A DNA stretch of 64,000 nucleotides from a virus (taxonomy: Duplodnaviria > Caudoviricetes): positions 32,001 to 96,000 of the IMG/VR virus record IMGVR_UViG_3300030376_007544; one strand, written 5' to 3'. Every line of letters starts with the position of its first letter. Position 1 is the stretch's first letter. Under the pieces are notes generated by a model that was not told the origin of the DNA, ran no database searches, and saw only the letters and a list, made by a program, of their open reading frames with translations. Positions 7,740 through 37,208 of the stretch are shown here, one piece after another. Both the position numbers and the translations under genes were made by a program.

Positions 7740-7847
7740 GTCAGTTCGCTGAAAAATGTGTCACGTTACCTCCCGGTACAGAAGTTCGTCGCCGAAAAGT
7801 TCCGAACAAGTCCCGACCTTGTGAAAAATTTCACTAAGTTTCGAGCT

Positions 7848-7999
7848 AAGTTACCCGGCAGTAACTTAAAAATGACAAGTTACCCGGGAGTAACTTATGA
7901 AAAATGACGAAAACTTAAGTTACCAGGAAGTAACTTACGAAAACTTAAGTTACCCGGCAGTAACTTATCAAAATTTACGAAGTTACCCGGCAGTAACTT
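7848..7999. repeat. five copies of the palindrome AAGTTAC-N6-GTAACTT
   Basis: Copies at 7848, 7877, 7917, 7947, 7980; a sixth at 14166. Confidence 0.9.
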
Positions 8000-8473
8000 A
8001 TCGAAGCTCGAACGCCCAGGGGTGATTCCTCCCCTTGCCAGTGGGGAGGAACTTTTGGTGTTACTTCTTCGGAGGGATTGCACCTCTTAAGATTATGAAC
8101 CAAACTGTGCAGAACCCTATTGGTCCTACTAGTGCGAATAATGTATCCACTTTGTTTCTCTTTCTATGTGATTGTGACTTTCACAACCTCACACCTTCCA
8201 GGATAACTGCTAAAAACAGAAATACCAACCTCTAAAAAAGAAATTTCTAATATTTAAATTTCTTCTATTTGAGGTTGCAAATTAGACATTTATCAGATAC
8301 TCGACCTGTTAGATTTTGAGCAGCTTTTGAGTAGCAGTAAAAAACAGAAATACCAACCTCAAAACCTAAAAAAAGAAATATCAAGATTTCTTTTTTTAGA
8401 GGTTGGTATTCGCCTGGTGAATCTGTATCCTGGTATATGTGAGGTTGAAAGTCAACTCCACAGAAAGGAATAA

Positions 8474-8698
8474 GTGAGACACTTATTAACGTTTACTAGA
8501 ATGATCGCACAAGAGATCAGACTAGTAATCACAAAGGTGCTAGATCTTCTAGCAACTCCATATTGGAGAGTTTACAACAAACTACACAATAGGAGGTACA
8601 GAAGAGAAAACCCCGAAAGGTTTGATCGACTAACTGGCGAGATGTTAGTTTTTGATCCTAGATCAGAAACATACAAAAGACTAGAGGAACTAGTCTAA
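8474..8698 (+). CDS. small hypothetical protein
   Basis: AAAGGA ribosome-binding site, GTG start, hairpin downstream. Confidence 0.6.
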   Translation: MRHLLTFTRMIAQEIRLVITKVLDLLATPYWRVYNKLHNRRYRRENPERFDRLTGEMLVFDPRSETYKRLEELV

Positions 8699-8847
8699 TC
8701 GCAGAGGAGGCGCCCCTCGCAAGAGGGGCAACTCTTCACTACATAGAACACCTAGACAACCCTAGAGCGTTCAGAGTCCCCTAGAGGGCTAGAATACCTC
8801 TCTGAAATATAGAGGGGGGAGGGGAACCTGGGCGCTTTTATCTAACT

Positions 8848-8890
8848 TTGTGAAAACTTTCACAAACTTACTTTGTGAAAACTTTCACAA
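8848..8890. promoter_or_regulatory. two tandem Rex-type operators TTGTGAA-N4-TTCACAA
   Basis: Perfect copies at 8848-8865 and 8873-8890; others at 7819, 12662, 18479. Confidence 0.75.
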
Positions 8891-8896
8891 ACTTTT

Positions 8897-9119
8897 GTTA
8901 AGTTTGCTTAACTTTGTTCGTGAAGTTCGCCTAACTCGATAAGTTAAGTTTGCTTAACTTTGTTAGTTAAGTTCGCCTAACTTTTTCTGTTAAGTTTGCC
9001 TAACATAAAATGTTAAGTTTGCTTAACATAAAATGTTAAGTCAGCCTAACAAAAAATGTTAGCTTAGCCTAACATCAAATGTTAGCTTAGCCTAACATCG
9101 AATGTGAGGCATGCCTAAC
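8897..9119. repeat. ten copies of GTTAR-N6-YTAAC at an exact 23-bp period (DtxR/MntR-box-like)
   Basis: Starts at 8897, 8920, 8943, 8966, 8989, 9012, 9035, 9058, 9081, 9104. Confidence 0.9.
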
Positions 9120-9626
9120 ACCCAAATTTCGCCAGTTTCGCCTAAGCGCTGGAATCCTACGGTCAAGCTTTTTAGGATTTTTTGAAAAAAAAATTGAAAA
9201 AAATTTGAAAAAAAAATTGAAAACATTTAACATTCAACACACAAAGGAACCTTATACCTAGTAAAGAACTAAAACAATTACCAAACCAAACCACATATAC
9301 CCAGTGCCACAGTAGACCAACATCACTAACATGACACGTTGGAACTACGCAACAGTACCTAAACTGATACTAAATGATCACTACTCCAACTCAACTAAGT
9401 TAAAAAAACATTGAGGAACTGCACCCGAAGTAAGCAACTCGCTAGCTTTCTCCCAGAAAACTAGGGGATTACACTCATCAACCATGTACATAACTGCAAT
9501 CAAACGTTCCATTATATCCATGAACATACTGTATCGCAACCCTTTCCCCAAAAATCCTCCAATTCCTGCTACAATAGTTCAACAAATACTTGACACTTCA
9601 AACGGGACTATATAAGATAGATAAAC

Positions 9627-9785
9627 ATGAACGAAAACAACGACGACCACGCTACAGAAGCTTCGCCAGTTACTGCGCCTAGACTGTCACGCTATACTTG
9701 TCATAAGTGTGATGTATCACTAGAGGCACTAACAGAGTCTGATGTTTGGTGTGGAAAAGGACATCGCATGGAGAGGATAGGCTAA
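9627..9785 (+). CDS. small Zn-ribbon protein (52 aa)
   Basis: CHKC...CGKGH; TTGACA-17-TAAGAT promoter at 9590-9618. Confidence 0.6.
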   Translation: MNENNDDHATEASPVTAPRLSRYTCHKCDVSLEALTESDVWCGKGHRMERIG

Positions 9786-9786
9786 A

Positions 9787-9930
9787 GTGGCTAGAAGAAA
9801 CGCATCGTTTGGAGCAGGAACTATCAGCAAAACCCAGCGTAAACGCAAAGGGATACACGCAAAGAGTAAGCACTCCAAACTCAAAGGTTCCAAGAACTAT
9901 AAGAAAAAGTACAGAGGACAGGGAAGATAG
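9787..9930 (+). CDS. small, highly basic protein ending KKYRGQGR (47 aa)
   Basis: GTG start two bases after the previous stop; K/R-rich. Confidence 0.6.
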   Translation: MARRNASFGAGTISKTQRKRKGIHAKSKHSKLKGSKNYKKKYRGQGR

Positions 9931-9937
9931 TTAGGCC

Positions 9938-10035
9938 CGAACAAACGTTCGCCAATGTTAAGCACGCCTAACATTTGATGTTAGCTTAACCTAACACATC
10001 GAACAAACGTTCGCCACATACCGAACAAATGTTCG
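9938..10035. promoter_or_regulatory. three LexA (SOS)-type boxes with a DtxR-like pair between them
   Basis: CGAAC-N4-GTTCG at 9938, 10000, 10022; GTTAR-N6-YTAAC at 9957 and 9980. Confidence 0.75.
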
Positions 10036-10174
10036 CCCATGTTCGTCACATTTTTGCTCGTTTTGCGAAGCCACCCGAATCCTACGGTCAACCTACGGTC
10101 AGCATAAAACAGAAAAACCCCACACCCGAAAGAAAAAGAAAAGGTGTGGGGTTAGACTGGAAAGAAAGGTACTT

Positions 10175-10438
10175 TTAAGGTAGCACCAACCTCTGTCCTA
10201 TTTGAAGATATGAACCTCCATTGAGTTCGCTTGCTTGATAGACTGCGTGTCCAGTATGACCTTCGCAGTGTTCATTTATTATGTCCCAGAGAGTGTCGCC
10301 ACTTTCAACTGTCACTTCACCGGATTGGCACTTGTAGTCAATTGCGTCATTTGCGCCCTTGACTATCCCTATTCCCAGTCCAGCAGTGATAGCAATTGCG
10401 CCTATCCCTCCAAGAGCTTTTTTAGTTAATGTGTTCAT
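10175..10438 (-). CDS. membrane-anchored LysM-domain protein, leaderless
   Basis: N-terminal TM helix; VESGDTLWDI...LQIGQRLVLP; ATG 7 nt after TAAGGT. Confidence 0.85.
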   Translation of the reverse strand: MNTLTKKALGGIGAIAITAGLGIGIVKGANDAIDYKCQSGEVTVESGDTLWDIINEHCEGHTGHAVYQASELNGGSYLQIGQRLVLP

Positions 10439-10554
10439 AGGTATAACCTTAACACACTCCATGTCACATTGCAACACTTCTCAACAAAAAATAAAAAAAT
10501 AATTTCTTAGGTAAAAGGTTGCGTTCATGTTGCAACTCTGCTAACATGGTATTC

Positions 10555-10701
10555 ATGAGTTACAGATACGACATAAAACACGACTGGTACACTGATAAGT
10601 GGAACGTCGTTGATACTCGTAACAGAGACTGCACAGTCTCCACACATAGTTCTAGGGAAGAAGCACTAGCCGAAGCGCTAAAAAAGGATAGTTCTTCTTA
10701 A
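10555..10701 (+). CDS. small hypothetical protein, leaderless
   Basis: TTGCGT-17-TAACAT, ATG 7 nt downstream. Confidence 0.65.
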   Translation: MSYRYDIKHDWYTDKWNVVDTRNRDCTVSTHSSREEALAEALKKDSSS

Positions 10702-11286
10702 CTAAGGGGGATGCTGAGGCTACCCCCCTAAATCTTAGCCCCACTTCTGGTTTCACTCATTTCCCAGAGGTGGGGCTTTCTTCGTGTACCCCCAACATTC
10801 ACCCAAAGCTCAACACGAACATATGTTCGCATCGAGGTCAGGTCAGGCCGAGCAGGTCGAGAGGCCGATGTGTCCCGATTACATCGGGGCTTTATCAGAC
10901 CTAAGCTTAGCTCGAAGCTTAGCTTGACCAGCTCGAAGCTTAGCTGGATGCAGGAAAAGTTTGCCAAAAGGTTGCATTTTGAATCGTTTTGCGCTAAACT
11001 TCAGCAAACCCTACGGTCAGCCTACGGTCAAACCTGGGAAAAATCAACAAAAGCCAACGAAAAGTTGCAATTTTGTCCAGCTTTGCAGCAGCTTAGCAGC
11101 AGCTTAACCAGCTTAGCAGCAGCTCGGATGCAGCGATTCGAGGTCAACCTCGTGAAGTCCCGACTATATCGGGACGATATGACCTCACTTATTGGCCATC
11201 TCGCACTTGCATCCATATAAGCTCGCATACCAGGAAGAAACCCCAGACTAGGGAAATGAGTAAAACCTAGTCTGGGGTTATGAACT

Positions 11287-11379
11287 TTAGTGTCCTAAAA
11301 CATTTAGGACTGCTAAAGTTAGAAATAGGATTCCGAACATCCAATACATCGGAACCATTTCTTTTGAATACCAACTCAT
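11287..11379 (-). CDS. 30-aa membrane peptide
   Basis: MSWYSKEMVPMYWMFGILFLTLAVLNVLGH; GGGAG RBS; own promoter and terminator. Confidence 0.65.
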   Translation of the reverse strand: MSWYSKEMVPMYWMFGILFLTLAVLNVLGH

Positions 11380-11459
11380 CTTTATCTCCCTTCGTTGATA
11401 CTTCATCTTATCAAACTCACAACTAATTGCAACCTTTAATTAAAATTATTTATTATTTA

Positions 11460-11732
11460 TTACCACTCACGCCAACTTCTGCCCCAACGTGGAGATGTTG
11501 ATCGTAAGTAGGTTGCGAGTTCAGGGTACTTCTCTTCTATAGCGCTAGGCAAGTAAACGTGCACTAGCAGATCAAGCGTCCTAACGAACCTACAGGGAGA
11601 ACCAAACCAAAACCTACTTCGTGGTTTCATTTCGTTCTTGATGTAGGCACGAACCCTATTGTGATCTATGTCCCAATAATCAACGCCAACTTTATCTGCG
11701 AAGATTCGTAGTCCTATGTAGTAGTTGTTCAT
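11460..11732 (-). CDS. hypothetical protein, paralogue of 27108-27389, leaderless
   Basis: Shared DYWDIDH, SRFWFGSPC, LRSTSPRWGR. Confidence 0.8.
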   Translation of the reverse strand: MNNYYIGLRIFADKVGVDYWDIDHNRVRAYIKNEMKPRSRFWFGSPCRFVRTLDLLVHVYLPSAIEEKYPELATYLRSTSPRWGRSWREW

Positions 11733-12374
11733 ATGTATGAGTATAGGTTGTCTACAACTATATTGCAAGTTTTATCTAAGAAATTGTTTGATATTATTAG
11801 CTCCACCTAACATGCCCGAATGTTAGGCTTGCTTAACATTGAGTGTAAGTTTAACATAACACAGGTCAGGTCAGGTCAGGTCGAGCAGCAACAGGCCAAA
11901 TCGAGGTCAAGATGTCCCGAATATATCGGGACTAATCGAGAGCTTAGCAGCTTAGCAGCAGCTCGAAGCTTAGCTCGATCCCAGCTCAGCCGAAGCTGGA
12001 AAACCCTACGGTCAGCCTTTTTTTGCTAAAATGTTGCAAAACGAAAGGCTTTGTGATATAATGGAATCAACTTTTGCCCATCCTAGCACAAACTTTGGCG
12101 AAGACCATCCCAAATCCAGCTCGACGCAGCAACTTTGATCGACTCGACTCAGTGAGTCCCGACTATAACGGGGGTCTACTAGGTCGATTTGACCAGCTTT
12201 GGCCCTTATCGCCACATCCCGTATACCAGGAAGAGATCCCAAATTAGATAAGGAAATAAAACTAATTTGGGATCAACTCCGTAAATTTATTGTGTCACTC
12301 ACTTCTTGAGTGTGAGGGATTTATGTTGCCACGATCCCTACTCGCCGAATCTGATTCAGATGGTTTAGTTACGC

Positions 12375-12565
12375 TTAAGCCTGAACTGTGTCGAGCCATG
12401 CCTGCGCTTCCTCGTGCGTCTTAAACCCCATTAGGATTTTTGACGCTTCTGGATAAAGCGCGTGGAAGGCTGATGGTTCATTGCTCTCAGGTCCCCATAG
12501 CCGAAGCCATCGAGCACTGTAGCGAACTACGCCTGTCTCTATATGATCACCCCATTTCCACTCAT
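12375..12565 (-). pseudogene. small gene with an apparent frameshift at its start
   Basis: The leaderless ATG at 12565 is out of frame with the ~62-codon ORF that ends at 12375. Confidence 0.35.
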
Positions 12566-12641
12566 GTATCCAGGTTATCACGAAATTTCGCAAAACCACC
12601 CGGTTTTTTAAAAAAATTTAAATTTGCCACATTATGGGAAA

Positions 12642-12787
12642 TGAGAATGATTCTCAAAAGTTTGTGAAATGTTTCACTAAGTGACCGAACATTTGTTCCC
12701 CCGAACACTTGTTCCCCCCGAACATATGTTCCCCGAACACTTGTTCGTGTTAAGCATGCCTAACATTGAGTGTTAGCTTAACATAAC
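12642..12787. promoter_or_regulatory. stacked operators: Fur-like, Rex-like, 4x LexA-like, 2x DtxR-like
   Basis: TGAGAATGATTCTCA 12642; TTGTGAAATGTTTCACTA 12662; CGAAC-N4-GTTC at 12686, 12702, 12719, 12734; GTTAR-N6-HTAAC at 12749, 12772. Confidence 0.75.
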
Positions 12788-13354
12788 AAAATAAAAAAAA
12801 TAAAAAAATTTCAAGAAAAGGTTGTTTTTTTTGAAAGGCTGCACAAAAAATCGACAGGTCAAAATCGACCTCAGCGTGTCCCGAATATATCGGGGGTCTA
12901 CCAGGTCGCTGGAAACGCTACGGTCAAGCTACGGCCAAGCTTTCGAGCTGAAAAGGTTGCGAAAGCAAAAAACTTCTGCTAAAATGAAAAGAAATCTTCA
13001 AAAGTTTAGCGAAAGCCTGGGGAAAAACAACCAAAAGCGGCAAAAAGTTGAAAAAAAGCAGCTTCGCAGCGCAGCTTCGGGTCATCCAGCAGCCACATCC
13101 CGCATAAGTCCCGACTATATCGGGGGCCTCTAAGGTCCACGTATCCTGGATCGGATCATCCTTTTCACGAGCTTCACTCAGTGTGTTCATGTGACTACTT
13201 TTTAGTCTGGATCCCGATTTCACTCAGCGTGTTCATATGACTACTTTTTATTCTGGATCCAGAATCGTATTCATGGGATTTCCCACAATGTGGTTAATTT
13301 TGAAACTTTGGTAAAAAAGTTTCGAATGTCACAGGCATTAGATAGATTGAATAC

Positions 13355-13657
13355 ATGGAAAAGAAACAAGGGAAGGAAGGTGAAAAAATGAGAACTCTTG
13401 AGAACGGAGCAACCGCTCTTGTGTGGAGTGTGCAACACAATGCTGAAGGCAGTGGGTATCGCAACTACACAGGCGTTGTTCTGGCTCATGCGCCCCATCT
13501 GATGGATCCATATGCAACATGGACTGTCGCTTCAGATGATGGGATCACGTTCTGGTGTAATGCAGGGCATTACTACTCCAGTCGTGAAGATGCACATCAA
13601 GACTTCGTAGTGCGTGCCACTAACGAAACAGACTTGATGTCTCACGCAGTAGCCTAA
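13355..13657 (+). CDS. hypothetical phage protein
   Basis: Own promoter; PYATW...GHY motif; alternative start at 13388. Confidence 0.7.
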   Translation: MEKKQGKEGEKMRTLENGATALVWSVQHNAEGSGYRNYTGVVLAHAPHLMDPYATWTVASDDGITFWCNAGHYYSSREDAHQDFVVRATNETDLMSHAVA

Positions 13658-13773
13658 AGCGAGTCAGACTCGGAGCCTGATGGGGGCTTGGCAACAGAAC
13701 CCCATCACCCCAACAACTTGATAAGGAAGGAAAAAGATCCCCCACTCCCTAAGGTGGGGGATTTTTATTTACC

Positions 13774-13875
13774 CCAGATCCAGATCCAGATCCAGATCCA
13801 GATCCGAGCCTGATCCTGATCCGAGTCAGATCCAGATCCAGATCCAGATTGGAGTCAGATCCAGATCCAGATCCA
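13774..13875. repeat. (CCAGAT)n microsatellite containing 13 GATC
   Basis: Read directly from sequence. Confidence 0.9.
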
Positions 13876-14165
13876 TCCCCGAAACTCTTTCAAACTGGGC
13901 AACTTTGGAAATCGCTACGGTCAAGCTCCGGTCAAACTTTTTGCATCCTTCTGATCCGCCCTCGATCCAACCCTGCAACCTGGAATACCCCCGATTATAT
14001 CGGGACTTTCTGAGAAGTCGAGGGTCTAAAGCTGCATCCGAGCTGCATCCGAGCTGGAGCTTAGCTACTGCGTGAGTCCCGTTATATTCGGGACTATACG
14101 ATAGGTTTTGACCTGACCTGACCTGCTGCTCGACCTGACCTGACCTGATGACCATCCCCCGAACT

Positions 14166-14324
14166 AAGTTACTCAGTGGTAACTTGTGTTAGGCACGCTT
14201 AACACTAAATGTTAGGTGAACTTAACATATGTTAGGTATGCTTAACATTCAATGTTAGGCACGCTTAACATACTCCCCGAATAATGTTAGCTTCACCTAA
14301 CACTCAATGTTAGGGCTACTTAAC
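14166..14324. repeat. one GTTAC-N6-GTAAC plus six GTTAG-N6-YTAAC boxes in three 23-bp pairs
   Basis: 14188/14211, 14231/14254, 14286/14309. Confidence 0.85.
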
Positions 14325-14392
14325 GAAATAAATAATCTAAAGAATTCATCAAAAACACCCGGAGTGTCACACATAGATGATAGATTGAACTT

Positions 14393-14704
14393 ATGAGTAG
14401 TTTGGAGGTGAAAGAAAATATGAGTCATGTACTTCTGATTGAAGGCGCTGATGGCGATTTAGTTGATGCACATACAGTGTGTAGCGACAGTTGTCACCGG
14501 AGCCTAGCAGTAGAGTTAGACGTGCCCTATGGAGGGTGGTTCGGTTGTATCGAACTGGAGTTTAACGACTACTGTCAGTCTTGTGGGACGCTGATTCATG
14601 GGGTTGAAGGACCCCATGAGTTCCATAACACTGTATGTGAAGATACCACTTGTGAACTTTGTTCTGATGAACGTAAGTTGCAACTGGAACTCGCTACAGT
14701 TTAA
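14393..14704 (+). CDS. Cys/His-rich putative metal-binding protein
   Basis: CSDSC, CQSC, CxxxxCxxC; alternative start at 14420 after GGAGG. Confidence 0.7.
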   Translation: MSSLEVKENMSHVLLIEGADGDLVDAHTVCSDSCHRSLAVELDVPYGGWFGCIELEFNDYCQSCGTLIHGVEGPHEFHNTVCEDTTCELCSDERKLQLELATV

Positions 14705-15514
14705 GGCTTCAATCCAATCCTGAATAAGATTCGGACTCACACCCCTAGAGTTGGCACCAGAATAGGGGCAACACAAACAACAACACATTCAACGAAACAT
14801 TGAAATACAACTAAACAACTCATGGATATTCCCCGATTTACTTAGGTGAGTCGGGGAACTTTCCTGGAATCCGAGAAAGCTCGGAATTGCTACGGTCAAG
14901 TTATTCTGGTCAAACTGCAGCCAATCATCCGAACTCAAGCAGCCAATCGATTCGAACTCAAAAAGCCCCGTATATATCGGGACTAAATAAGAAGCTGAAT
15001 GAAATCGTGAGCTTAGCTGCTGCTGCGAGCTGAGCTTAGCCGCTAAAAAGTGACGAAAAGTGACGAAAGTGACGAAAAGTTCGAAACTTTTTTACCATCC
15101 TATCAAAAGTTTTTGAAAATTGCAACTTTTTGCCGAAAAACCAGGGAGCTTAGCCGCTGAATCAGCCGCTACACGCTGCAAATCGAAGTCGATTCAGCAG
15201 GTAAGTCCCGTAATAATCGGGACATATTAAGGTTGGCCTGACCTGACCTGCCATCCCAGCAGCCATCCAAGTGTTAGGTATGCTTAACACGAAATGTTAG
15301 GTACGCTTAACATTAGAACCGAACAAGTGTTCGTTTATGTCATTTATGTTACAGAAAAAGAAATTTAAGAAAATCTTGCGTAAAACTTGCAATTGTCACA
15401 CCCACCACCTAAGATGGTGTTTACATAGATGAGGCACCTGCCAAGTAGGTGAAGAGTCTGGGTAAGAGTCCCAGAAGGTGCCACATTGTAAACACCTATA
15501 GGAAAGAAAAACAT

Positions 15515-15760
15515 ATGCTTACACGTATGCATTTCGACACTGTAGCGAATAGCTTAAGGCTTAGGCTTGAAGCACTTATTGACAACCTCAATAGAGCGCC
15601 TCAAATCCACATGGAAGCCGTTAAGGTATGGCACGCAATCGCTTGCGATATGCGCACCATGTTCGCTGGAAGTAACCCTAGATTTGATGAAGAAAAGTTT
15701 AACGACGCTTCTGGAATCACTTCAGTGGAATACTTTCTCCCCAGTGTCAAAACCGACTAA
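15515..15760 (+). CDS. hypothetical phage protein
   Basis: LTRxHF...NPRFDxxKF motif; promoter and structured leader upstream. Confidence 0.7.
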   Translation: MLTRMHFDTVANSLRLRLEALIDNLNRAPQIHMEAVKVWHAIACDMRTMFAGSNPRFDEEKFNDASGITSVEYFLPSVKTD

Positions 15761-16067
15761 GAGTCGGAGTCCGGCGGAACTCGGCAACAGAATCCGCCCA
15801 AATAAATAGCCAACCTAAACAAATACTCCGCTGAAAGGGCGGGGTATTTGCCTGGAATCGAGAAAGTTCGAAAACCCTACGGTCAAGCTACGGTCAAGCT
15901 TTTGAGCTGGTCGGCAGGTCAAAACTCAAGTCGATCCCAATCAGTCCCGAATATAACTGGACTATCTAACCGTTCTTTTGTTTAATTCGAGCTTAAGGAC
16001 CACCCAGGCAAAGGTTCCCGACTTGTCTGACGGGAACCTTTTTTAATCCGGTATTTAGTTTGGAACC

Positions 16068-16160
16068 TTATCGCTTTTTGGGCGGTATACAACTTTTCAG
16101 TATGTAAAACCACACCATAGCAAATCCTACTGGACCTACTAGAGCAAATACAATTTCCAT
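16068..16160 (-). CDS. 30-aa membrane peptide
   Basis: MEIVFALVGPVGFAMVWFYILKSCIPPKKR; own promoter and terminator. Confidence 0.6.
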   Translation of the reverse strand: MEIVFALVGPVGFAMVWFYILKSCIPPKKR

Positions 16161-16302
16161 GTATTTCTTTCTGAGTGATTAAGTACTTCTTAACCTCTCA
16201 CCTTCAATACTAGGTGCAAATATCATAAATTGCAACCTTAAAACAAAAAAAATAAAAAATAACCCCTGATCCGAAGATCAAGGGCTACTTTTGTTATTAG
16301 TT

Positions 16303-16566
16303 TTAGCCTATTCCTGCGAACTTATTAAATTCAGCCTCTTCAGCGATTGTTAGTTCTCTAGGTTGTTGGTTGTGGATTTCTAACCCCCACATTGTTCGGT
16401 GCATATGCTCAATCTCTTTAGCCTGTCTGTAGTCTTTACAAAACAGTTGTAGTATTTGACAATCAGTTTGATCGCCAGTTGGAGATTGAAACCATAAGTG
16501 TAGAGCATTATCTCTTACTTCGGTTCCGCATAAAGCTCCCTTTGTTGTTATTGTTGGTTCTATCAT
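16303..16566 (-). CDS. hypothetical protein
   Basis: Promoter, RBS and terminator bracket the ORF. Confidence 0.7.
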   Translation of the reverse strand: MIEPTITTKGALCGTEVRDNALHLWFQSPTGDQTDCQILQLFCKDYRQAKEIEHMHRTMWGLEIHNQQPRELTIAEEAEFNKFAGIG

Positions 16567-16706
16567 GTATTCCCATCTAATCCGTTAGTACTTCTAACTT
16601 CATAACTTAATCGTATCATGACCCGAAACAGATTGCAACCCCAATAGCAAAAAATTATCTAAAATAATTCTTGCTTTTGTCACACACCTATGTTAAGGTA
16701 ATAAAC

Positions 16707-16859
16707 ATGATAAACAAACTAAAAGACAACGGACATAAGTGGAAGGCACTTGATGGAGATGTTCGGTGTGTTGTGTGTGATGCACGGCCATCGGGAGCAT
16801 CTGCCAAAAAGTTGTGCATACGCTTTGATCTGGAGAGAATGCAAGGCTCTAAAATATGA
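16707..16859 (+). CDS. small Cys/His protein, leaderless
   Basis: TTGCTT-17-TAAGGT then ATG; H...CxxC...C. Confidence 0.6.
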   Translation: MINKLKDNGHKWKALDGDVRCVVCDARPSGASAKKLCIRFDLERMQGSKI

Positions 16860-16957
16860 TTACAATTCTAGTCACATTTGGAGTTGGAGTGATAGTTGGA
16901 ATACTTATCGCAACTTACTTAGAGCATGGGGCAATACTTTTGCCCGATGACGAGTAG
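16856..16957 (+). CDS. 33-aa membrane peptide
   Basis: ATGA overlap with the upstream stop; MITILVTFGVGVIVGILIATYL... Confidence 0.6.
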   Translation: MITILVTFGVGVIVGILIATYLEHGAILLPDDE

Positions 16958-16989
16958 CAAACTCTACGGTCAGACTATTTCGCAAAAAG

Positions 16990-17207
16990 ATTGAGTGTCC
17001 TGACGGGTACATAAGGACCAACGGCAGTTGGCGGTATTGTTGGGGTGTGGTAGGAATACTGCACTAAAGCGACACACTCTAGGGAATCGAGCCTACTTTC
17101 GGGGACAGATAGCAATATGTCCAGTCCGATAGGGCTAGCCGTACCAAGCGGTTGAGTACTCCTTAATCCCTAACCCCACCTTCGTGCTGAGGGTGGGGTA
17201 TTCTTTT
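16990..17207 (+). ncRNA. candidate structured RNA
   Basis: No ORF, GC-richer, several stems, ends in an intrinsic terminator. Confidence 0.35.
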
Positions 17208-17229
17208 ACCCCACCCCCTACGGTCAGCA

Positions 17230-17481
17230 CTACCGTCGGTTGTAGCGCCTTCGGTTAAACGCCCGACATGTACGGCAGTTAGTCGCCAACTTCTCTTCGC
17301 CCTGATAGACGTAAGTGAATTGCTCCACTTTCAACCATTGACGACAAGTGCGACATATGTACATCTCGCCCTTCGCAGCTCGTTTAATGGCTTCAAGATC
17401 AGTGTGGTCGTGGTTGTCTTCCATGACACTGGCACGATCCATTCTTGCCTTTAACTTAGTCGCTTGAAAACGATCTTTCAT
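17230..17481 (-). CDS. Zn-finger protein
   Basis: Two CRTC motifs; GGAGGTG RBS. Confidence 0.7.
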   Translation of the reverse strand: MKDRFQATKLKARMDRASVMEDNHDHTDLEAIKRAAKGEMYICRTCRQWLKVEQFTYVYQGEEKLATNCRTCRAFNRRRYNRR

Positions 17482-17678
17482 AATTCACCTCCTTAGGTAA
17501 TTTGTCTTACACTACATATAGGCACCAAAGTCGTAAAAAGCGGACATAAAAATAAAAATAATTTATTTTGCTTAAAGGGTTGCATTCGGGCCACAAAGAT
17601 GCTACGCTGGTAATTACCAAGTTGGAAGTACCAATTTGGCTCAAGTCGGAAGTACTGACTTGATTAAGGAGATATTCG

Positions 17679-17822
17679 ATGCAAAGAGAATTGAACTGCA
17701 AATGTGTTAGATGTGACAAATTGTACACAACTAGCAAACTAGCAGGAATAGATCGCAAAGGTTTCTGCATTAACTGTTGGCAACACCAACGAAATATATG
17801 GAGACTCGTAAGATCAACATAA
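17679..17822 (+). CDS. 47-aa Zn-finger protein
   Basis: CVRC...CINC; AAGGAG RBS. Confidence 0.65.
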   Translation: MQRELNCKCVRCDKLYTTSKLAGIDRKGFCINCWQHQRNIWRLVRST

Positions 17823-18084
17823 ACATAAACTAAAACATAAAGTTTCGTGAAGAAGTTTTCTCATTTTCCTTCTTCATGAAACATTCCCAAAAAGACCCAC
17901 ACTTTTTCATTTTCTTTCGAGTGTGGGTCTTTTTCTGTCCAGCTACATAATACAAAATCAAAAAAATACTAAGAGTTGTATTTATATCGGGACTTTCTTA
18001 CTTACCCTTCCTTCTATTACACCTCTATGGTGTCCCTATGGTGTCCCTACCCAGGCAGAAGGGGAGCCGAAGCCCCCCTCCAAA

Positions 18085-18279
18085 TTAAGACGCTTTTTTA
18101 GCGTTGAGTTTTTTGAAGTAAGGAGTGACATCATCAACCACTTTTTCACCGTAGTGAATTTCAGTGGCGATTACCATGTCTCCACAGTCCCTTATTTCTT
18201 GGGCTTTTTCTTCGAGCTCATATTCACATACGATTTCCGAAGTGCCTTCGTTATAAGCAATTAATAAGAATTCTCTCAT
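18085..18279 (-). CDS. hypothetical protein
   Basis: RBS, promoter and terminator bracket the ORF. Confidence 0.6.
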   Translation of the reverse strand: MREFLLIAYNEGTSEIVCEYELEEKAQEIRDCGDMVIATEIHYGEKVVDDVTPYFKKLNAKKAS

Positions 18280-18730
18280 TGTTTTCTTTCTATCTGATTG
18301 AGACTCTCTCAACCCGATAACTTAACTCTAACAGGGTTTGAGAAAAAACACAACCTTTTTTCAAAAAAAAATAAAATAATTTTTTCCTCTATTTTGTTAG
18401 GTATGCTTAACATCAAATGTTAGCTACGCCTAACACTTTTACTGGTCGAGTGGCCTGAAATTGAAAAATCAAGCTGACTTTGTGAAACTTTTCACAAACT
18501 ATCGAGGAGTTTGTCGATATTTGGCCTCAAAAAGTCCCGATTATATCGGGGGCCTCTGAGGTCGAAAACTCTACGGTCAGCTCACGGTCAGCTTGCCCGC
18601 CCACCCGTAAAGTCCCGTATATATCGGGGCTTAAAGACCTCGAAACTCGAACGGCCACTCAAAAGCTCGTATACCAGGCGAAATCCACCGCACTCATAAT
18701 GCGGTGGAAGCCTCCTTCGGTTAAGAAGTT

Positions 18731-19111
18731 TTACCGTCTTGGTTGTGTAACTTTGACGGAAGAAACTTCTTTGATGTTGATCGCTTTACCAACAAGATCG
18801 CTATCTAGCCACCCTGCTTCAACCGCACCGTCAATAAGTTTCATCTCACCGACTCGCTTGGTAACACGTTGGTGTTGCCCTTGCGGAAGAATCGCTTTCA
18901 GAACATCGTTGTCAATAGATCGTCTGTTTTGATTCACTATTGCAACTTTCGTTCCGTCTGCGAGGGTTACGCTTTCAACTTCTAACGCTCGGAAAGCAAG
19001 TTCTGCTTCCTCAACCGCTTCCCTTGCTTCTGCAAGAGCGCTCCGTGCTTCCACGACTCGCTGTGCGGTTAGTTCGCTGATCTTGCGATCATTCACTAAT
19101 AAAGTATCCAT
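18731..19111 (-). CDS. hypothetical protein, paralogue of 25023-25406
   Basis: Near-identical VESVTLADGTKVAIV...LPQGQHQRVTKRVG. Confidence 0.85.
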   Translation of the reverse strand: MDTLLVNDRKISELTAQRVVEARSALAEAREAVEEAELAFRALEVESVTLADGTKVAIVNQNRRSIDNDVLKAILPQGQHQRVTKRVGEMKLIDGAVEAGWLDSDLVGKAINIKEVSSVKVTQPRR

Positions 19112-19656
19112 GTCGGACCCTTTCTCTAATTCAGAAGCCTATCTGGGACTCTCACCCTGACTCTTCACCTAATGGCTAGACTCCTGTTTTCTTTGATATA
19201 TCCAGGTTACCATCGTTGTGAGACAAAACCACCCGGTTTTTCAAAAAAATTTCAAATAATTTTTTTCGTAACATAAATGACATATTTGTTAAGTTCGCCT
19301 AACAGGCCATGTTCACGCTTGCGAACAGATTATGTTAAGTGCACCTAACAAACGATGTTAAGCAGAGCTAACAAATAAAAAAATAAAAAAAATAAAAAAA
19401 ACTTGACAAAAGGTTGTTTTTGTGAAAGCAGCGTGCAGGTCAAAATCGAGGTCAGTATGTCCCGATTATTACGGGACTCTCTTCCTTCTATTAAGCCTCT
19501 ATGGTGTCCCTACCGCATGACCTGCAGCAGCGCTGACCAGTACCCGCCCAGGAAGAAGCCCTAGCAGGAAAATGAGTGAAACCTGCTAGGGCTTTCGGAC
19601 ATCGCATCAGTAGTTAGCAAAACTAGGTTACTAATCAGTAGTGCGATCCTCCGATT

Positions 19657-19794
19657 TTATGAGGAGAGATGTTTCGCTAGTTTGGGGTGCTCCCTTAGCG
19701 TCTTCTCTCTTACTTCACGCTCATGATGCCTGTGCATCGTTTTGGCGAGCGTAGCGTATAAGAGCGCTCCTATTATGTAAAGTGCTAATGTCAT
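19657..19794 (-). CDS. 45-aa membrane-anchored peptide
   Basis: MTLALYIIGALLYATLAK...; GAAAGG RBS; own promoter. Confidence 0.6.
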   Translation of the reverse strand: MTLALYIIGALLYATLAKTMHRHHEREVREKTLREHPKLAKHLSS

Positions 19795-20016
19795 TGTTTA
19801 CCTTTCGTTTTAACGACAAGTACCACCGTATCAAAGATTCAACTACATTGCAACACCGAAAAGCTAAAAAATTAAATAATTATTTTTACGCTAAATACTT
19901 GCAATTGTCTCACGGGCCCTGTAGCATGGAATGTATAAAGAAAAGCGAGTAGTCCGCCGTAAGGACTGGTTCGAGTGAAAGCCTCGAAGGACTGCTCCCA
20001 AGTAGAAAGGTAAAGC

Positions 20017-20352
20017 ATGAAACTAATCACTGCTGATCAACGTAAACGGCTTCTGGCAAACCACGAAGCCAATCTCGAAGGAGAAGGAGGGATCGACCAC
20101 AAACCTGTAGTGAAAATATTCACGGCAGGGGCAGGGGCGACATGGTTGCTTACAGAGATGGACGAAGATGGAATCTTCTTCGGCCTATGTGATCTTGGTC
20201 TGGGGTTTCCAGAACTAGGTTATGTCTCTCAAAGTGAATTTGATTCACTTCCTGCAAATATGTTCCTCGAACGTGATGCATGGTTTACGGCTACGAAAAC
20301 CCTTAGCGAGTACGCTTCGGAAGCCCGTGGCCTGCGACGAATCGCTGCTTAA
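20017..20352 (+). CDS. DUF2958-family protein
   Basis: PVVKIF...ATWLLTE...FGLCDLGLGFPELGYVS...ERD. Confidence 0.85.
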   Translation: MKLITADQRKRLLANHEANLEGEGGIDHKPVVKIFTAGAGATWLLTEMDEDGIFFGLCDLGLGFPELGYVSQSEFDSLPANMFLERDAWFTATKTLSEYASEARGLRRIAA

Positions 20353-20523
20353 TCGGATGCCTCCGGCCTTCTGGTCGGGGGTATTTCCCTGGGTGGCCAT
20401 AAATAAAAATCGACTACCCGTGAAGTCCCGATATAGTCGGGGCATCCTGACCTCGACCTGACCTGACCTGACCAACCAGGAAAAATCCCCCAACACTTTC
20501 GTGCTGAGGGATGAACCTACACG

Positions 20524-20658
20524 TTATCCGTGACAGAGATCATGCATGTGGCGGAGATCTTCGTCCCAATCCCACATCATCTCCATAAGGTCTTCCTTAC
20601 TCATGAGTGGTTCTGCTTCGACCCACTCTCCGTCTTCATTTCTGGTCCATTCAGTCAT
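20524..20658 (-). CDS. 44-aa acidic, Trp-rich peptide
   Basis: GGAG RBS; own promoter and terminator. Confidence 0.6.
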   Translation of the reverse strand: MTEWTRNEDGEWVEAEPLMSKEDLMEMMWDWDEDLRHMHDLCHG

Positions 20659-20992
20659 TTTATCTCCGATCTGAATCTACAAGCTTCCACTTTGAAGGCC
20701 TGATATATCCAGATTACCATGACCACTTCATAATTGCAACCCCAAATAAAAATTAATTAATATTTTTAGCAGCCGTTGAAAATAGCAGCCACTGAAAATG
20801 CAGCAGCAGGTCAGGTCGAGTGCAGGTCAGATCAAACACAGGTCAGGTCTGGTCAGGTCTGGTCACCCCGTAAAGCCCCGATTTATACGGGGCTAAATAA
20901 GTAAGACCACTCAGGATTTCTCCCCCTCACTCTAGGCCACCCGTAGGTGGCGAGGCCCGTTGGTCTACGGGGTGGTCTACTTACTTCGACAA

Positions 20993-21142
20993 TTAGACGA
21001 TTTCGATTTCGAATTCGCCGTTGTCGTACTTCTTGTCGCATCCGTTTCCTCGAAAGCTTCCACAGAAGACTAATCCTTCTTCGGTTGCTATCGCATCGAG
21101 TGACGAGCAGAAGATTCCACAATTATCACATTTTACTGGCAT
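20993..21142 (-). CDS. small Zn-finger protein
   Basis: CDNC...C...C; GAAAGGA RBS. Confidence 0.65.
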   Translation of the reverse strand: MPVKCDNCGIFCSSLDAIATEEGLVFCGSFRGNGCDKKYDNGEFEIEIV

Positions 21143-21392
21143 ACTGAATTCCTTTCGGTAGTTAATTATTTCAGTACTTCCAGGATACCACCGTTTGACC
21201 AGCATTGCAACATCAAATGCAAAAAAAAAGAATTTTAATTTCTTTGCAAAAACCGGGTGGTTTTGTCTCATAGTCGTGGTATCGTTCTATTTGTTGGTAA
21301 AGTACCGACATTACATACTAGCCGTAATTCTCGAATGAGTGGAAAGCCCCTGACAGTAGAAGCCTGTAGGTTCGAGTGGGAAAGGAATAGAA

Positions 21393-21761
21393 ATGTTTAC
21401 ACGAACAGATAGTGTTTGTATAGATATTAGTCAAGACGGACAAGTGCCTGTTCTAGGTTACGCTTATTCGTTCTCGAAAGCTCGTGACGAGTGGTTTGGC
21501 TACGTCGCTGTCAGAGAGGGTATGCTCTCTTCTGAAATGCGATACGTAGTTAAACAAATGCACCGTATCACGAAGTACGGAGAGGACGTATGGGAAGTAA
21601 TCGAAGGAACTACTGTCGAAGGTACCGATCCTGTAGAATCAGGAATACGGAACAACCGACAAAGTGCACTCGTTACACTGTCGAAATTGTCTTTAGATTT
21701 ATTTCGGGGTAACGACTATGTTGATTACGGAACCGTAATGAACATCCCACCACTTGGCTAA
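21393..21761 (+). CDS. hypothetical protein
   Basis: RBS, promoter and terminator. Confidence 0.7.
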   Translation: MFTRTDSVCIDISQDGQVPVLGYAYSFSKARDEWFGYVAVREGMLSSEMRYVVKQMHRITKYGEDVWEVIEGTTVEGTDPVESGIRNNRQSALVTLSKLSLDLFRGNDYVDYGTVMNIPPLG

Positions 21762-21977
21762 CCGAAGGGAATCCACCGAACTAAACACTCGGTGGATTTT
21801 GCCTGGTATGCGAGATTTTGTCAATTTCTGACCAGCAGGTCAGGTCATGCAGCAGGTCAGGTCAGGTCGAAGGTCGAGTAGTCCCGTATCTATCGGGACT
21901 CTTCTCCTTCTATTAGACTGCTATGGTGTCCCTATGGCGTACCTACGCTATGCAGCTCGCCCCAACCCCAACCAGGC

Positions 21978-22251
21978 GAAAAGCCCACCGAACTTCGGTG
22001 GATCGGTTCTTCACTCTCTACTTGCGAAGGGTATCTTGTTTGCCATTTAGGTTCGCCCTCCACCTTGCAAGGTTTTTGAGGAGTCCGCACCGTACCTTTC
22101 GGTTCTTTTGATGGTTTCCGTTTCCACTTCTGGTAGGTTTTTTGGTAAAAAGAACCTCTTTCCACGAAGTTCGGTGGGCCCTTAGTTGCAACCCAACCGA
22201 ATGGATATTCAGTTGTCAATTCGGGGTTTCCCCCTGCCACCCTTTCGGGCT
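21978..22251 (-). ncRNA. candidate structured ncRNA, about 275 nt
   Basis: TTGCTT-17-TAAGAT promoter; GNRA-capped stems; terminator; only an 11-codon ORF has an RBS. Confidence 0.55.
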
Positions 22252-22647
22252 ACGCCCATCTTAACATAAGGGTGAGACAAAAGCAACCTTTGTCCAACAA
22301 TTTCTTAAATAATTTTTTATTCCCAGTAGCGGCAAAATAGCGGCAAAATAGCAGCGAAAATCTGTCGTTTTTGAAAGTTTTTGACAAAAAACGGGAGACC
22401 AGCGGGCAGGCCAGTAGAAAATTTGGCAAAACTAATCAAAAATGACAGTTTTTGCTCAGCTCAGGCAGAGCTAAAAGGAGCAAAAGATGAAGGAGGTCAG
22501 GTCAAAGTTTACCTGAGGTCTAATAGCCCCGACTATATCGGGACCCGGTTAGGTATGCTTAACTCTTTTTGTTAGGTTGGCTTAACATCACTCTAAAAGG
22601 ACATGCAGAAACCCCGACCCTTTCGGGCCGGAGTTCGCTGCTGGGAT

Positions 22648-22866
22648 TTAGATGGGGAATTGTTCTCCGTATTGAAACTCTCGAACAACTATGACCATTT
22701 TTCCGCAACTATGGCAGTGATCATTTTCCCAATACTTAGAGCCACAAGAACATCGTGTACAACCTTCTTTGGCTATTCTGTTACCGAGTAGTTCATCTTG
22801 GGTAAACATTTGCAGTTGGCCCTCAAGTTCTACTCGTACTGTATCTTTTGTTAGTTCTTTTAACAT
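22648..22866 (-). CDS. small Zn-ribbon protein
   Basis: CSCGSKYWE...CHSC. Confidence 0.7.
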   Translation of the reverse strand: MLKELTKDTVRVELEGQLQMFTQDELLGNRIAKEGCTRCSCGSKYWENDHCHSCGKMVIVVREFQYGEQFPI

Positions 22867-35766: not shown

Positions 35767-36093
35767 CTAGCGCATTCGAGTACCGCACTTCAGACAAAAC
35801 TCTGACCAAGGATAAACTTGACGATCATCCAACGGATGTGTACAAGAAAAGATTTCACGCCATCTTGTATCAGCCATCTGACGAAGCCACTCAGAAACAG
35901 AACAACTATCTGCTTCAGCAGCTGCCGCCCACTGGTCACGCTGAGTTTCAGAAACCCTAATTAAAACTTGTTTATCACGGGATTCTTCAATTAACTCCTC
36001 AGGTTCGCTAAGCTCTTCAAGCAAAGCTGCCTCAATATTAGATTTCTTCACTTCATCTGAGCGAAGAACTTCCTTCATATACTCAGTAGTCAT
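35767..36093 (-). CDS. ribbon-helix-helix-like protein with Zn finger
   Basis: VLIRVSETQRDQW..AA....SVSEWLR; CTH...CLKC. Confidence 0.6.
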   Translation of the reverse strand: MTTEYMKEVLRSDEVKKSNIEAALLEELSEPEELIEESRDKQVLIRVSETQRDQWAAAAEADSCSVSEWLRQMADTRWREIFSCTHPLDDRQVYPWSEFCLKCGTRMR

Positions 36094-36821: not shown

Positions 36822-37208
36822 TCAACTCCGATTTAAATACGACCAAATCTGCGCTAATGTGAAACGCTCTGCCTTAACACCACGACGTTGAGCTTCAGCA
36901 GCCAACTGACGGGGAGTCAAACCAGCCCAAACTCCGTGAAGGTCTGATGGGGGAAAACTGAGGGCATAATCGAGACATTCTTTACGTACATCACACTGTC
37001 TACACATACGTCTAGCCTCTGATATATAGGACAGGTCTTTGTGTTCTTTGGGGAACATCTTGTCCGATTTACCTTTGCAAAGTGCTTCTTGTGACCAGTG
37101 TTGAGTGGGTTCTGGTGGGTTATTGTGGGGTGAAGTGGGATCGTTTTCGGAGGGGTGTGGTTGTATAGTAGTCTTTGTGGTTTTGGTTATTTTGTGTAGT
37201 TTATTCAT
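36822..37208 (-). CDS. whiB: WhiB-family Fe-S transcription factor
   Basis: W...ALC, CxxC-x5-C, GVWAG turn. Confidence 0.92.
   Translation of the reverse strand: MNKLHKITKTTKTTIQPHPSENDPTSPHNNPPEPTQHWSQEALCKGKSDKMFPKEHKDLSYISEARRMCRQCDVRKECLDYALSFPPSDLHGVWAGLTPRQLAAEAQRRGVKAERFTLAQIWSYLNRS

Follow-up and report, generated by a model that had tools for sequence, protein, structure and literature searches.

Predicted host-repressor binding-site arrays on the DNA of a large marine actinobacterial phage

Binding sites for host-encoded transcription factors have been described on the DNA of several phages. In the virulent Bacillus phages phi29 and Nf, boxes for the host regulator Spo0A are scattered over genomes that lack a copy of that regulator, so that host state is imposed on the phage, and a handful of sites overlapping early promoters and origins have been shown to repress phage transcription and replication (PMC2731898). 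The locus examined here likewise has operator-type sites without the regulators searched for, but for five regulators instead of one, with about 50 sites, tandem arrays of up to ten, and most sites lying off the core promoters, all of which are inferred from sequence alone. In LexA-controlled switches of temperate phages, such as that of the tectivirus GIL01, host LexA boxes of the same CGAAC-N4-GTTCG type lie in promoter P1 and require the phage protein gp7 (PMC4551915), whereas the nine boxes found here, four of them butted end to end, lie outside core promoters and are mixed with other operator families. The corynephage tox gene is controlled by the host DtxR through a single operator that overlaps the tox promoter; here, about 32 boxes of a variant palindrome (TGTTAGG-N4-CCTAACA) were found, up to ten of them in tandem. 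The untranslated repeat regions of the phage T5 left terminal repeat also form long non-coding stretches in the early part of a large phage genome, dense with repeats and palindromes and of unresolved function, but their identified host sites are conserved consensus DnaA boxes with a proposed role in stopping injection (bioRxiv 10.1101/866236), whereas the sites described here resemble operators of metabolic and stress repressors spread over 15 kb between small gene cassettes. Cluster A mycobacteriophages carry dozens of repressor-binding stoperators in short intergenic regions, many of them not at promoters; however, stoperators are a single asymmetric 13-14-bp family bound by the phage's own repressor, while our locus holds several palindromic families that match host regulons, and no phage repressor was found. 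Finally, repeated high-affinity sites that do not control a gene can titrate a regulator and change the expression of its targets (PMC7826281, PMC3322331, PMC8599769), but those cases are engineered arrays or chromosomal sites, and no phage-borne decoy array turned up in our literature searches.

Operator-type boxes confined to a 15-kb cassette region

We analyzed a 64-kb stretch (hereafter the window) of a 128-kb phage record. The original prediction, that intergenic DNA at 7.8-22.6 kb of the window carries about 50 palindromes of unrelated families, was confirmed. CGAAC-N4-GTTC occurred at 9 sites, 6 of them with both flanking C/G, and shuffled sequences gave a mean of 0.39 matches counted on both strands against 15 observed. 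TTGTGAA-N4-TTCACWA occurred at 5 sites, and at up to 2 mismatches there were 6 matches against 0.65 expected. GTTAR-N6-YTAAC occurred at 28 exact sites, 27 of them in 8897-22586 and one at 36621, together with four one-mismatch copies in register inside arrays (8920, 9104, 11796, and 12772) and a TGTTC-N8-GAACA variant at 19311, so that the earlier estimate of about 33 was fair. AAGTTAC-N6-GTAACTT was found at 6 sites, and TGAGAATGATTCTCA at one site, 12642. All of these counts in the 7.8-22.6 kb region were far above shuffled expectation, and the other 113 kb of the record held one such site. The remaining 64 kb of the record outside the window (pieces L194-L197) had no LexA-type or GTTAR-type box, and all TGTTAR-N6-YTAACA sites of the record were located at window positions 8988-22587. 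The region also contains further repeat families that had not been listed in the original prediction.

The boxes are grouped into 11 clusters, hereafter named after the repressors whose operators they resemble. Cluster 1 (7819-7999) consists of one Rex-type box (7819-7836) and five AAGTTAC-N6-GTAACTT boxes (7848, 7877, 7917, 7947, and 7980) between the stop codon of the SNF2 helicase gene (7739) and a bidirectional terminator (8026-8051), with no promoter nearby. Cluster 2 (8848-9120), located between convergent genes, comprises two perfect Rex-type boxes (8848 and 8873) followed by ten iron-repressor-type boxes at a 23-bp period (8896-9120; 10 copies at 8897-9119), after which phased A-tracts follow at 9182-9223. 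Cluster 3 (9938-10035) consists of a LexA box, two iron-type boxes, and then two LexA boxes, starting 8 nt after the stop codon of ORF 9787-9930 and lying before the terminator at about 10118-10152. A single perfect LexA box, CGAACATATGTTCG, lies at 10816-10829, just after a terminator. Cluster 5 (11795-11862) contains one exact and two degenerate iron-type boxes directly upstream of the AT-rich tract and the TTGCAA-N17-TATACT promoter of the minus-strand gene ending at 11768. Cluster 6 (12642-12788) lies between two AT-rich tracts of divergent promoters and combines a Zur box (12642-12656), a Rex-type box (12662-12679), four butted LexA boxes (12686-12747), and two iron-type boxes (12748-12788). 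Cluster 7 (14166-14325) holds one AAGTTAC box and six iron-type boxes, the last of which ends about 30 nt upstream of the likely -35 of gene 14393-14704. Cluster 8 (15272-15333) has two iron-type boxes and one LexA box, about 45-105 nt upstream of the -35 of the promoter for ORF 15449-15760. Cluster 9 (18395-18497) has two iron-type boxes next to the AT-rich tract of the minus-strand promoter of gene 18085-18312, and a perfect Rex-type box at 18480-18497. Cluster 10 (19287-19373) has three iron-type boxes and one TGTTC-N8-GAACA variant in the same register, between divergent AT-rich tracts, and cluster 11 (22547-22587) has two iron-type boxes at 23-bp spacing next to the terminator of minus-strand gene 22648-22866.

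The original claim that the boxes do not lie over -35/-10 elements held for the cassette promoters that could be mapped, in part by eye, although two adjacent GTTAR boxes themselves spell TTAACA-N18-TAACAT, which is promoter-like. About 45% of the boxes, including the 10-box array, lie between convergent genes. The claim that no such repressor is encoded in the window also held for the LexA, Rex, and DtxR families, and for LexA_DNA_bind, Rex N-terminal, and Fe_dep_repress domains it extends to the whole record. The region was near-identical in marine metagenomes of three studies from 2014-2018, and multi-family clusters of this kind recurred in unrelated contigs of other uncultured phages (handles L011, L179, L155, L193, and L175).

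Matching sites in front of actinobacterial regulon genes

The identification of the boxes as host operators had rested only on a resemblance; comparison with actinobacterial genomes gave direct support for iron (DtxR/IdeR-type), zinc (Zur), SOS (LexA), and redox (Rex) operators. In one family, that of genome handle G416, TGTTAR-N6-YTAACA occurred at 16 sites in 13 of 41 genomes, against 1 for the reversed control, and these sites lie 10-45 nt upstream of FTR1 iron permease or Fe(III)-type ABC binding-protein genes. In G362, a site lies 23 nt upstream of a DtxR-family gene, and each of 5 genomes has exactly one DtxR-family gene. One host site is identical to the phage's commonest 18-mer, and an alignment of phage and host boxes showed one shared consensus. 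The exact 15-mer of the Zur box lies about 20 nt upstream of znuA in two genomes, in one of which it is also divergent from a CobW-family gene. All 5 small genomes have a rex gene, and 3 of 3 rex upstream regions tested hold a box with 2-3 mismatches. LexA boxes of the same CGAACAnnTGTTC form occur about 6-8 times per small genome of this family and 2-4 times in another family. The fifth family, AAGTTAC, maps to fatty-acid degradation genes, with the AGTTAC box preceding beta-oxidation genes. The assignment of the G416 family as the candidate host is inferred from motif matches only.

Possible sequestration or control of neighboring genes

What the analysis shows is that the phage sequences match sites in front of the corresponding regulon genes in genomes of one actinobacterial family, and that the phage record encodes no LexA, Rex, or DtxR homologue; the binding of host repressors to these boxes, their sequestration, and any effect in trans are inferred. 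In our explanation, the spacers of the small-gene cassette region carry genuine host-type operators for an IdeR/DtxR-type iron repressor (about 32 boxes), LexA (9), Rex (5), an acyl-CoA-type regulator of fatty-acid degradation (6), and Zur (1). The proposal that the phage DNA acts as a decoy or sponge was only partly supported, its operator assignments having support from host-type genomes while its function remains an inference, and we favor sequestration tentatively and by a narrow margin. This reading fits the box numbers, their near-consensus quality, and the promoter-less positions of the largest arrays. Clusters 1-3 (23 boxes) lie between convergent genes or behind stop codons. In the 10-box array, the half-sites are kept (2 mismatches in 100 defined positions) while the centers and spacers differ, which suggests selection on the array. 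However, LexA and Rex are usually negatively autoregulated, which buffers titration, metal repressors bind only when metal-loaded, so that a sponge would do nothing in iron- or zinc-starved cells, and one Zur box cannot titrate anything. Moreover, every experimentally studied case of host transcription-factor sites on phage DNA known to us acts on neighboring phage genes or phage replication.

Nearly as likely is that the boxes let host repressors gate the expression of adjacent accessory cassettes, which would be switched on by iron or zinc shortage, DNA damage, high NADH, or acyl-CoA. In this view, adjacent iron boxes form iron-repressed promoters, the other boxes hinder use of the AT-rich upstream elements, and the orphan arrays are left-overs of cassette shuffling. 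Eight of 11 clusters lie within about 250 bp upstream of cassette promoters, abutting their AT-rich tracts, and iron-box doublets give TTAACA-N18-TAACAT in the direction of genes 14393, 15516, and 19111. In the host, a doublet with the same layout overlaps what looks like the promoter of an iron transporter gene, just before that gene. Other phages carry 2-4 of the same boxes just upstream of whiB or early promoters, the single Zur box and the single LexA boxes fit this reading, phi29/Nf (PMC2731898) and GIL01 (PMC4551915) offer precedents for host factor sites acting on the phage's own genes, as does the corynephage tox gene, and cassette-sized skips in a variant population show that shuffling occurs. 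On the other hand, no box overlaps the strong cassette promoters, 23 boxes in three clusters have no promoter to act on, the 10-box array keeps its half-sites while the rest diverges and so is under selection where it stands, and four butted LexA boxes and ten iron boxes exceed what a switch needs.

An architectural use of bound host proteins, as roadblocks or insulators between cassettes, as barriers against a host silencer of AT-rich DNA, or as anchors during DNA entry, as proposed for the DnaA boxes of T5 (bioRxiv 10.1101/866236), appears unlikely. The arrays do sit at cassette borders beside terminators and AT-rich tracts, several unrelated families are used interchangeably, and L179 has two DnaA boxes beside its LexA and iron boxes. 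Nevertheless, Lsr2 was not found in 5 small genomes of the candidate host family, there are no DnaA boxes in the window, binding that depends on metal or redox state makes a poor constitutive barrier, and intrinsic terminators are already present. Least likely is binding by phage-encoded proteins (iterons of an origin, partition sites, or operators of a phage repressor) with a coincidental or mimicked likeness to host operators, because, although cluster 2 (ten 18-bp dyads at 23 bp followed by phased A-tracts) has the layout of an iteron origin such as lambda ori, most small ORFs of the region have no known family, a weak NikA-like ribbon-helix-helix hit below the family cut-off lies at 35767-36093, and the record is only 87% complete, the five families each match a different host regulon's operator, one over 15 of 15 bases and one over 18 of 18, no LexA, Rex, or DtxR domain and no clear HTH_3 domain was found in the record, and the same boxes occur in phages of very different G+C content.

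If sequestration is the main effect, host repressor dimers would load onto these sites after injection. The consensus boxes of the phage equal (LexA) or far exceed (iron, Rex, and fatty-acid) those of a whole 1.7-2 Mb host chromosome, and in this view their number multiplies as the phage replicates. This would partly de-repress iron uptake, SOS functions, respiration, and beta-oxidation without any phage protein, which would suit a phage that encodes Fe-S proteins (two WhiB and one IscA-like). The smaller promoter-proximal clusters and the single Zur box probably also tie neighboring cassettes to host state, and the two effects are not exclusive; the phage DNA probably soaks up these host regulators or reads the state of the host through them.

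The phage record and its cassette region

The window (bases 32001-96000 of a 128,360-bp IMG/VR virus record, estimated to be 87% complete) encodes ThyX, two DNA methyltransferases, an SNF2 helicase, a sigma-70 factor, a family-A DNA polymerase, two WhiB proteins, an IscA-like Fe-S assembly protein, and an Hsp20. The helicase is about 30% identical to those of Arthrobacter, Gordonia, and Microbacterium phages, and the record is therefore that of a large actinobacterial phage. Relatives were found by PolA at about 75% identity (L198-L216), whereas the relative L217, found through neighboring genes, has no arrays, and none of 72 loci with DUF2958 relatives carries TGTTA boxes. The 12-16 kb part of the region occurs almost unchanged in marine metagenomes of at least five studies from 2014 to 2025, although no RNA data set was listed among these sequencing runs. 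Contigs from three studies (2014-2018) differ from it at only 0-8 positions per 4-5 kb, showing that it is a real and stable natural sequence.

Window 7.8-22.6 kb contains only small ORFs, most of which have their own TTGCAA-N17-TAnnnT-type promoter, a short or absent leader, and a hairpin terminator, and which are separated by gene-free spacers of 0.3-0.7 kb. The original prediction that these spacers hold palindromes of several unrelated families was confirmed, and its counts hold. The CGAAC-N4-GTTC family has nine sites (15 both-strand matches against 0.39 in shuffled sequence), six of them full and three near-full matches to CGAAC-N4-GTTCG, and all of the CGAACA-N2-TGTTC form. The TTGTGAA-N4-TTCACWA family has five sites (six matches against 0.65 expected at up to two mismatches), of which three are perfect TTGTGAA-N4-TTCACAA palindromes and two carry one mismatch. 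GTTAR-N6-YTAAC occurs as 27 exact sites in the region, along with four one-mismatch copies in register and one TGTTC-N8-GAACA variant, while AAGTTAC-N6-GTAACTT occurs six times and TGAGAATGATTCTCA once. Inside arrays the GTTAR boxes stand at a 23-bp period, with ten in a row at 8897-9119. Outside the region, the window has a single GTTAR box (36621), just downstream of a WhiB gene and inside ORF 36096-36785, and the other 64 kb of the record has neither LexA-type nor GTTAR-type boxes. The stretch around that outlying box encodes, all on the minus strand, a weak NikA-like ribbon-helix-helix hit below the family cut-off (35767-36093), a WhiB (36822-37208), the IscA-like protein (37572-37895), and the Hsp20 (39142-39561).

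Other repeat families share the region but are not part of this finding. About 19 GTCCCG-N7-CGGGRC palindromes with AT-rich centers flank the cassettes between 10872 and 22544 (e.g., 11915-11933 and 14077-14095). In a diverged 2025 metagenome population, cassette-sized skips (10613->11914, 11934->14075) have their joints at these palindromes, suggesting that they are the recombination points for cassette exchange. A search for TCCCG-N7-CGGGA in the candidate host genomes gave about a 2.7-fold excess over the control, but with GC-rich centers unlike the ATATA center of the phage copies, providing no evidence that it is a host operator. CTACGGTCA occurs 15 times at 9157-18590, always on the + strand and often as 11-bp doublets; the doublet was not found in any related IMG/VR contig, only in an unrelated Mu-like one (L027). 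Short-unit tandem repeats (CCAGAT x17 and (AGGTC)/(GACCT) runs) lie in the spacers at 13774-13875, 14109-14148, and 20806-20865, together with several 11-bp direct-repeat families (AGCTTAGCAGC, TAGCGGCAAAA, CTATGGTGTCC, AGCTGCATCCG) that look like sites for response-regulator-type proteins. Two paralogous ORFs of about 30 codons, which fall below the ORF length cut-off used, at ~8062-8150 (-) and ~16100-16190 (-), appear by eye to encode hydrophobic peptides ending ...IPPKK, each following a GAAAGAGAAA-like ribosome-binding site. Two strong promoter-like sites at 12034-12062 and 12957-12985 (TTGCAA-N17-TATAAT with a TG extension, and TTGCGA-N17-TAAAAT) point into spacer DNA without a convincing ORF and may drive small RNAs. 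Searches against Rfam gave nothing near the gathering scores in 7-24 kb, the only tRNA (tRNA-Glu, 1178-1251) lies outside the region, and no DnaA boxes were found in the window. An RNA-hairpin reading of the iron boxes was considered and set aside, because the commonest box type pairs A with C on one strand and G with T on the other, in both orientations; the LexA dyads leave only a 2-nt loop.

Correspondence of the boxes with operators in actinobacterial genomes

The original prediction identified the boxes as host operators by resemblance only. We tested them against genomes, using reversed patterns as controls. The phage record has no LexA DNA-binding, Rex N-terminal, or DtxR N-terminal domain and no clear HTH_3, and the small ORFs of the region show no DNA-binding family by Pfam. 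The phage sigma factor was uninformative about the host, being about 40% identical to all 292 genomes that matched (eight unpublished genomes were touched by that search, and no claim here rests on them). In a first candidate family of streamlined actinobacteria with 1.2-1.5 Mb genomes (the family of genome G096), the TGTTA box was not enriched (4 of 61 genomes, fewer than the control) and Rex boxes were missing (0 of 41), although LexA boxes of exactly the phage's form (CGAACATATGTTCG, CGAACAAATGTTCG) are present 2-4 times per genome; this family was rejected as the host family. A scan of species genomes for TGTTA doublets mostly hit unrelated operators. For example, in two Actinocorallia genomes (L019:829-869 and L021:2050-2090) a TGTTAAT-N4-ATTAACA doublet at 23-bp spacing, with a different half-site, lies between a TetR-family gene and a divergent gene read by eye as an acyl-CoA carboxyltransferase, an unrelated operator with a similar outline.

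A phylum-wide sample of 151 genomes showed no general enrichment of the GTTAR box but gave two telling hits. In genome G362, whose family and order each hold a single genome, the box lies 23 nt upstream of a DtxR/IdeR-family gene, and in genome G416 a doublet lies directly upstream of an Fe(III)-type ABC binding-protein gene. In the family of G416 (41 genomes, 1.7-6 Mb), the box is clearly a host motif, with 16 sites in 13 genomes against 1 for the reversed control, and in the further contexts examined it lies 10-45 nt upstream of FTR1 iron-permease genes or Fe(III)-type binding-protein genes. Each of five genomes of this family has exactly one DtxR-family (Fe_dep_repr_C) gene. One host site is identical to the phage's commonest 18-mer, TGTTAGGTATGCTTAACA, and 31 phage boxes and 7 host boxes align to one consensus, aaTGTTAGGtnnGCCTAACAt. 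Compared with the classical 19-bp DtxR/IdeR consensus, TTAGGTTAGGCTAACCTAA, the half-sites TTAGG/CCTAA are shared but the dyad spacing differs by 5 bp.

The remaining boxes were sought in the same family. The phage's 15-mer TGAGAATGATTCTCA occurs unchanged about 20 nt upstream of znuA in two genomes (G516 and G500), and in G500 it is also divergent from a CobW-family gene, which is a textbook Zur regulon. All five small genomes examined carry rex, and three of three rex upstream regions hold a Rex box with 2-3 mismatches 40-80 nt upstream of the gene, for example TTGTGAAAACTTGCACGA against the phage's TTGTGAAAACTTTCACAA. Perfect Rex boxes are rare in these genomes (2 of 41), and a CRP-type reading (TGTGA-N6-TCACA) is not excluded by sequence alone. 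LexA boxes, judged by the motif itself, recur as CGAACATATGTTC, CGAACAAATGTTC, and CGAACAGATGTTC in nearly every genome of the two actinobacterial families, some as doublets 30 bp apart, and occur about 6-8 times per small genome in the family of G416. The weakest of the five assignments is that of AGTTAC-N6-GTAACT, found at 5 sites against 2 for the control in 41 genomes; in two of three contexts examined it lies, as AGTTACC-N4-GGTAACT, just upstream of an acyl-CoA dehydrogenase gene and a thiolase gene, which points to a fatty-acid-degradation regulator (TetR/FadR-like). By sequence, the boxes are therefore host-type operators of five repressors, the fatty-acid one being putative. This family, or one close to it, probably contains the host, an inference from motifs alone.

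Arrangement of the boxes relative to genes

Three clusters, holding 23 boxes, have no promoter to act on. Cluster 1 (one Rex and five fatty-acid boxes) lies between the helicase stop codon and a bidirectional terminator, cluster 2 (two Rex and ten iron boxes) lies between convergent genes, and cluster 3 (three LexA and two iron boxes) begins 8 nt after a stop codon and precedes a terminator. The other eight clusters lie upstream of cassette promoters, usually abutting the AT-rich tract upstream of the -35, and are centered at roughly -75 to -250. None covers a mapped -35 or -10, and the LexA boxes lie behind stop codons or 45 nt or more upstream of the -35 rather than overlapping a regulated promoter. 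In the host, by contrast, the iron boxes sit 10-45 nt before the start codon. However, two adjacent iron boxes at 23-bp spacing themselves read TTAACA-N18-TAACAT (14199-14271, 15284-15313, 19361-19332, and 9039-9010), so that each doublet is also a sigma-70-like promoter in either direction. The host doublet upstream of the iron transporter has the same layout, and phage doublets could therefore be iron-repressed promoters.

In the ten-box array, the ten defined half-site positions are kept (2 mismatches in 100) while the centers and spacers differ between units, indicating selection on the boxes at a place with no gene to regulate. The diverged 2025 population carries an extra fatty-acid box at a new place and one substitution inside an iron box, which falls in the free center. 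A variant at window 13365 in a related population (run X8) has an inserted AAGTTACCAGGTGGTAACTT box that this record lacks at that place, showing that boxes are gained at new positions.

Recurrence in other viral contigs and possible functions

Doublets of the iron box occur in eight other IMG/VR contigs. In three viral contigs (L008, L015, and L014), four boxes and a hairpin lie upstream of a whiB gene. In contig L011, about seven tandem LexA-like boxes are followed directly by two iron boxes, the same order as at window 12686-12788 but in DNA of much higher G+C. Butted LexA doublets occur in 59 stretches of IMG/VR. An unrelated 60.6-kb viral contig (L179:780-900) has one iron-type box, two butted perfect LexA boxes, and two inverted consensus DnaA boxes (TTATCCACA / TGTGGATAA) within about 90 bp, and a 62-kb viral contig (L175:1141-1260) holds nine GGAACAGGTGTTCTA units at a 15-bp period, a pure LexA-like array. 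Two contigs of 130-144 kb (L193:9050-9210 and L155:2240-4200) have spacers packed with many boxes of several palindrome families in a few kb (LexA-type, GTTAAC-type, and a 5 x 31-bp ACAAAT...ATTTGT array), with a grammar resembling that of this window. Our literature searches found decoy sites studied in cells and in synthetic circuits, but no phage-borne array.

Our analysis establishes that the sequences are of host-operator type, that the record lacks LexA, Rex, and DtxR homologues, and that the boxes are confined, selected, and recurrent, whereas the binding of host repressors to them, and any de-repression in trans, is inferred. The original prediction that the array acts as a decoy for host repressors is only partly supported. 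Sequestration is our tentative preference, by a narrow margin. It is favored by the promoter-less arrays, by the near-consensus quality of the boxes (the phage's Rex boxes are better than the hosts' own), and by their numbers, which rival or exceed the exact pattern matches of one host-family genome: 27-32 against 0-2 for iron, 3 perfect against 0-1 for Rex, 6 against 0-1 for the fatty-acid box, 9 against about 6-8 for LexA, and 1 against 0-1 for Zur. In this view, all five proteins are repressors of uptake, repair, or energy regulons, from which a replicating phage with Fe-S cargo would profit. Negative autoregulation of LexA and Rex, and the metal dependence of IdeR-type and Zur binding, weaken a sponge. 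Control of neighboring genes, which is almost as plausible and may coexist with sequestration, is favored by the eight clusters upstream of promoters, the single Zur box, the promoter-like iron-box doublets, and the small clusters upstream of whiB in related phages; every experimentally studied precedent known to us works this way (phi29/Nf Spo0A and GIL01 LexA). An architectural role is unlikely, and the idea of counter-silencing gained no support, as Lsr2 was not found in five candidate host genomes. Binding by phage-encoded proteins is more unlikely still. Cluster 2 has the layout of an iteron-type origin, with tandem dyad repeats beside an AT-rich tract; however, its repeat equals the host iron operator, and no initiator was linked to it.

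Host regulator sites on phage DNA are already known as single switches (tox/DtxR, phi29/Spo0A, GIL01/LexA). What is new is the scale (about 50 near-consensus sites for five regulons on one phage), the tandem promoter-less arrays, and the recurrence of similar clusters in other uncultured large phages; titration in trans, if it occurs, would be categorically new. A bolder possibility, which we hold to be less likely than not, is that large phages carry protein-free repressor sponges, arrays of consensus operators tailored to the host's own iron, zinc, SOS, redox, and lipid-catabolism repressors that de-repress the host regulons as soon as the DNA enters and replicates. Such arrays would be a recurring, lineage-spanning takeover device whose box composition reveals both the host and the resources that the phage needs. 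Under either of the two leading readings, the boxes are a new kind of host-prediction signal, having pointed to one actinobacterial family and away from another, and the arrays are short enough to clone. If they titrate repressors, this is a way of reprogramming the host that needs no phage protein and is missed when a genome is annotated gene by gene; if they act on neighboring genes, the phage senses iron, zinc, DNA damage, redox, and lipid status at once.
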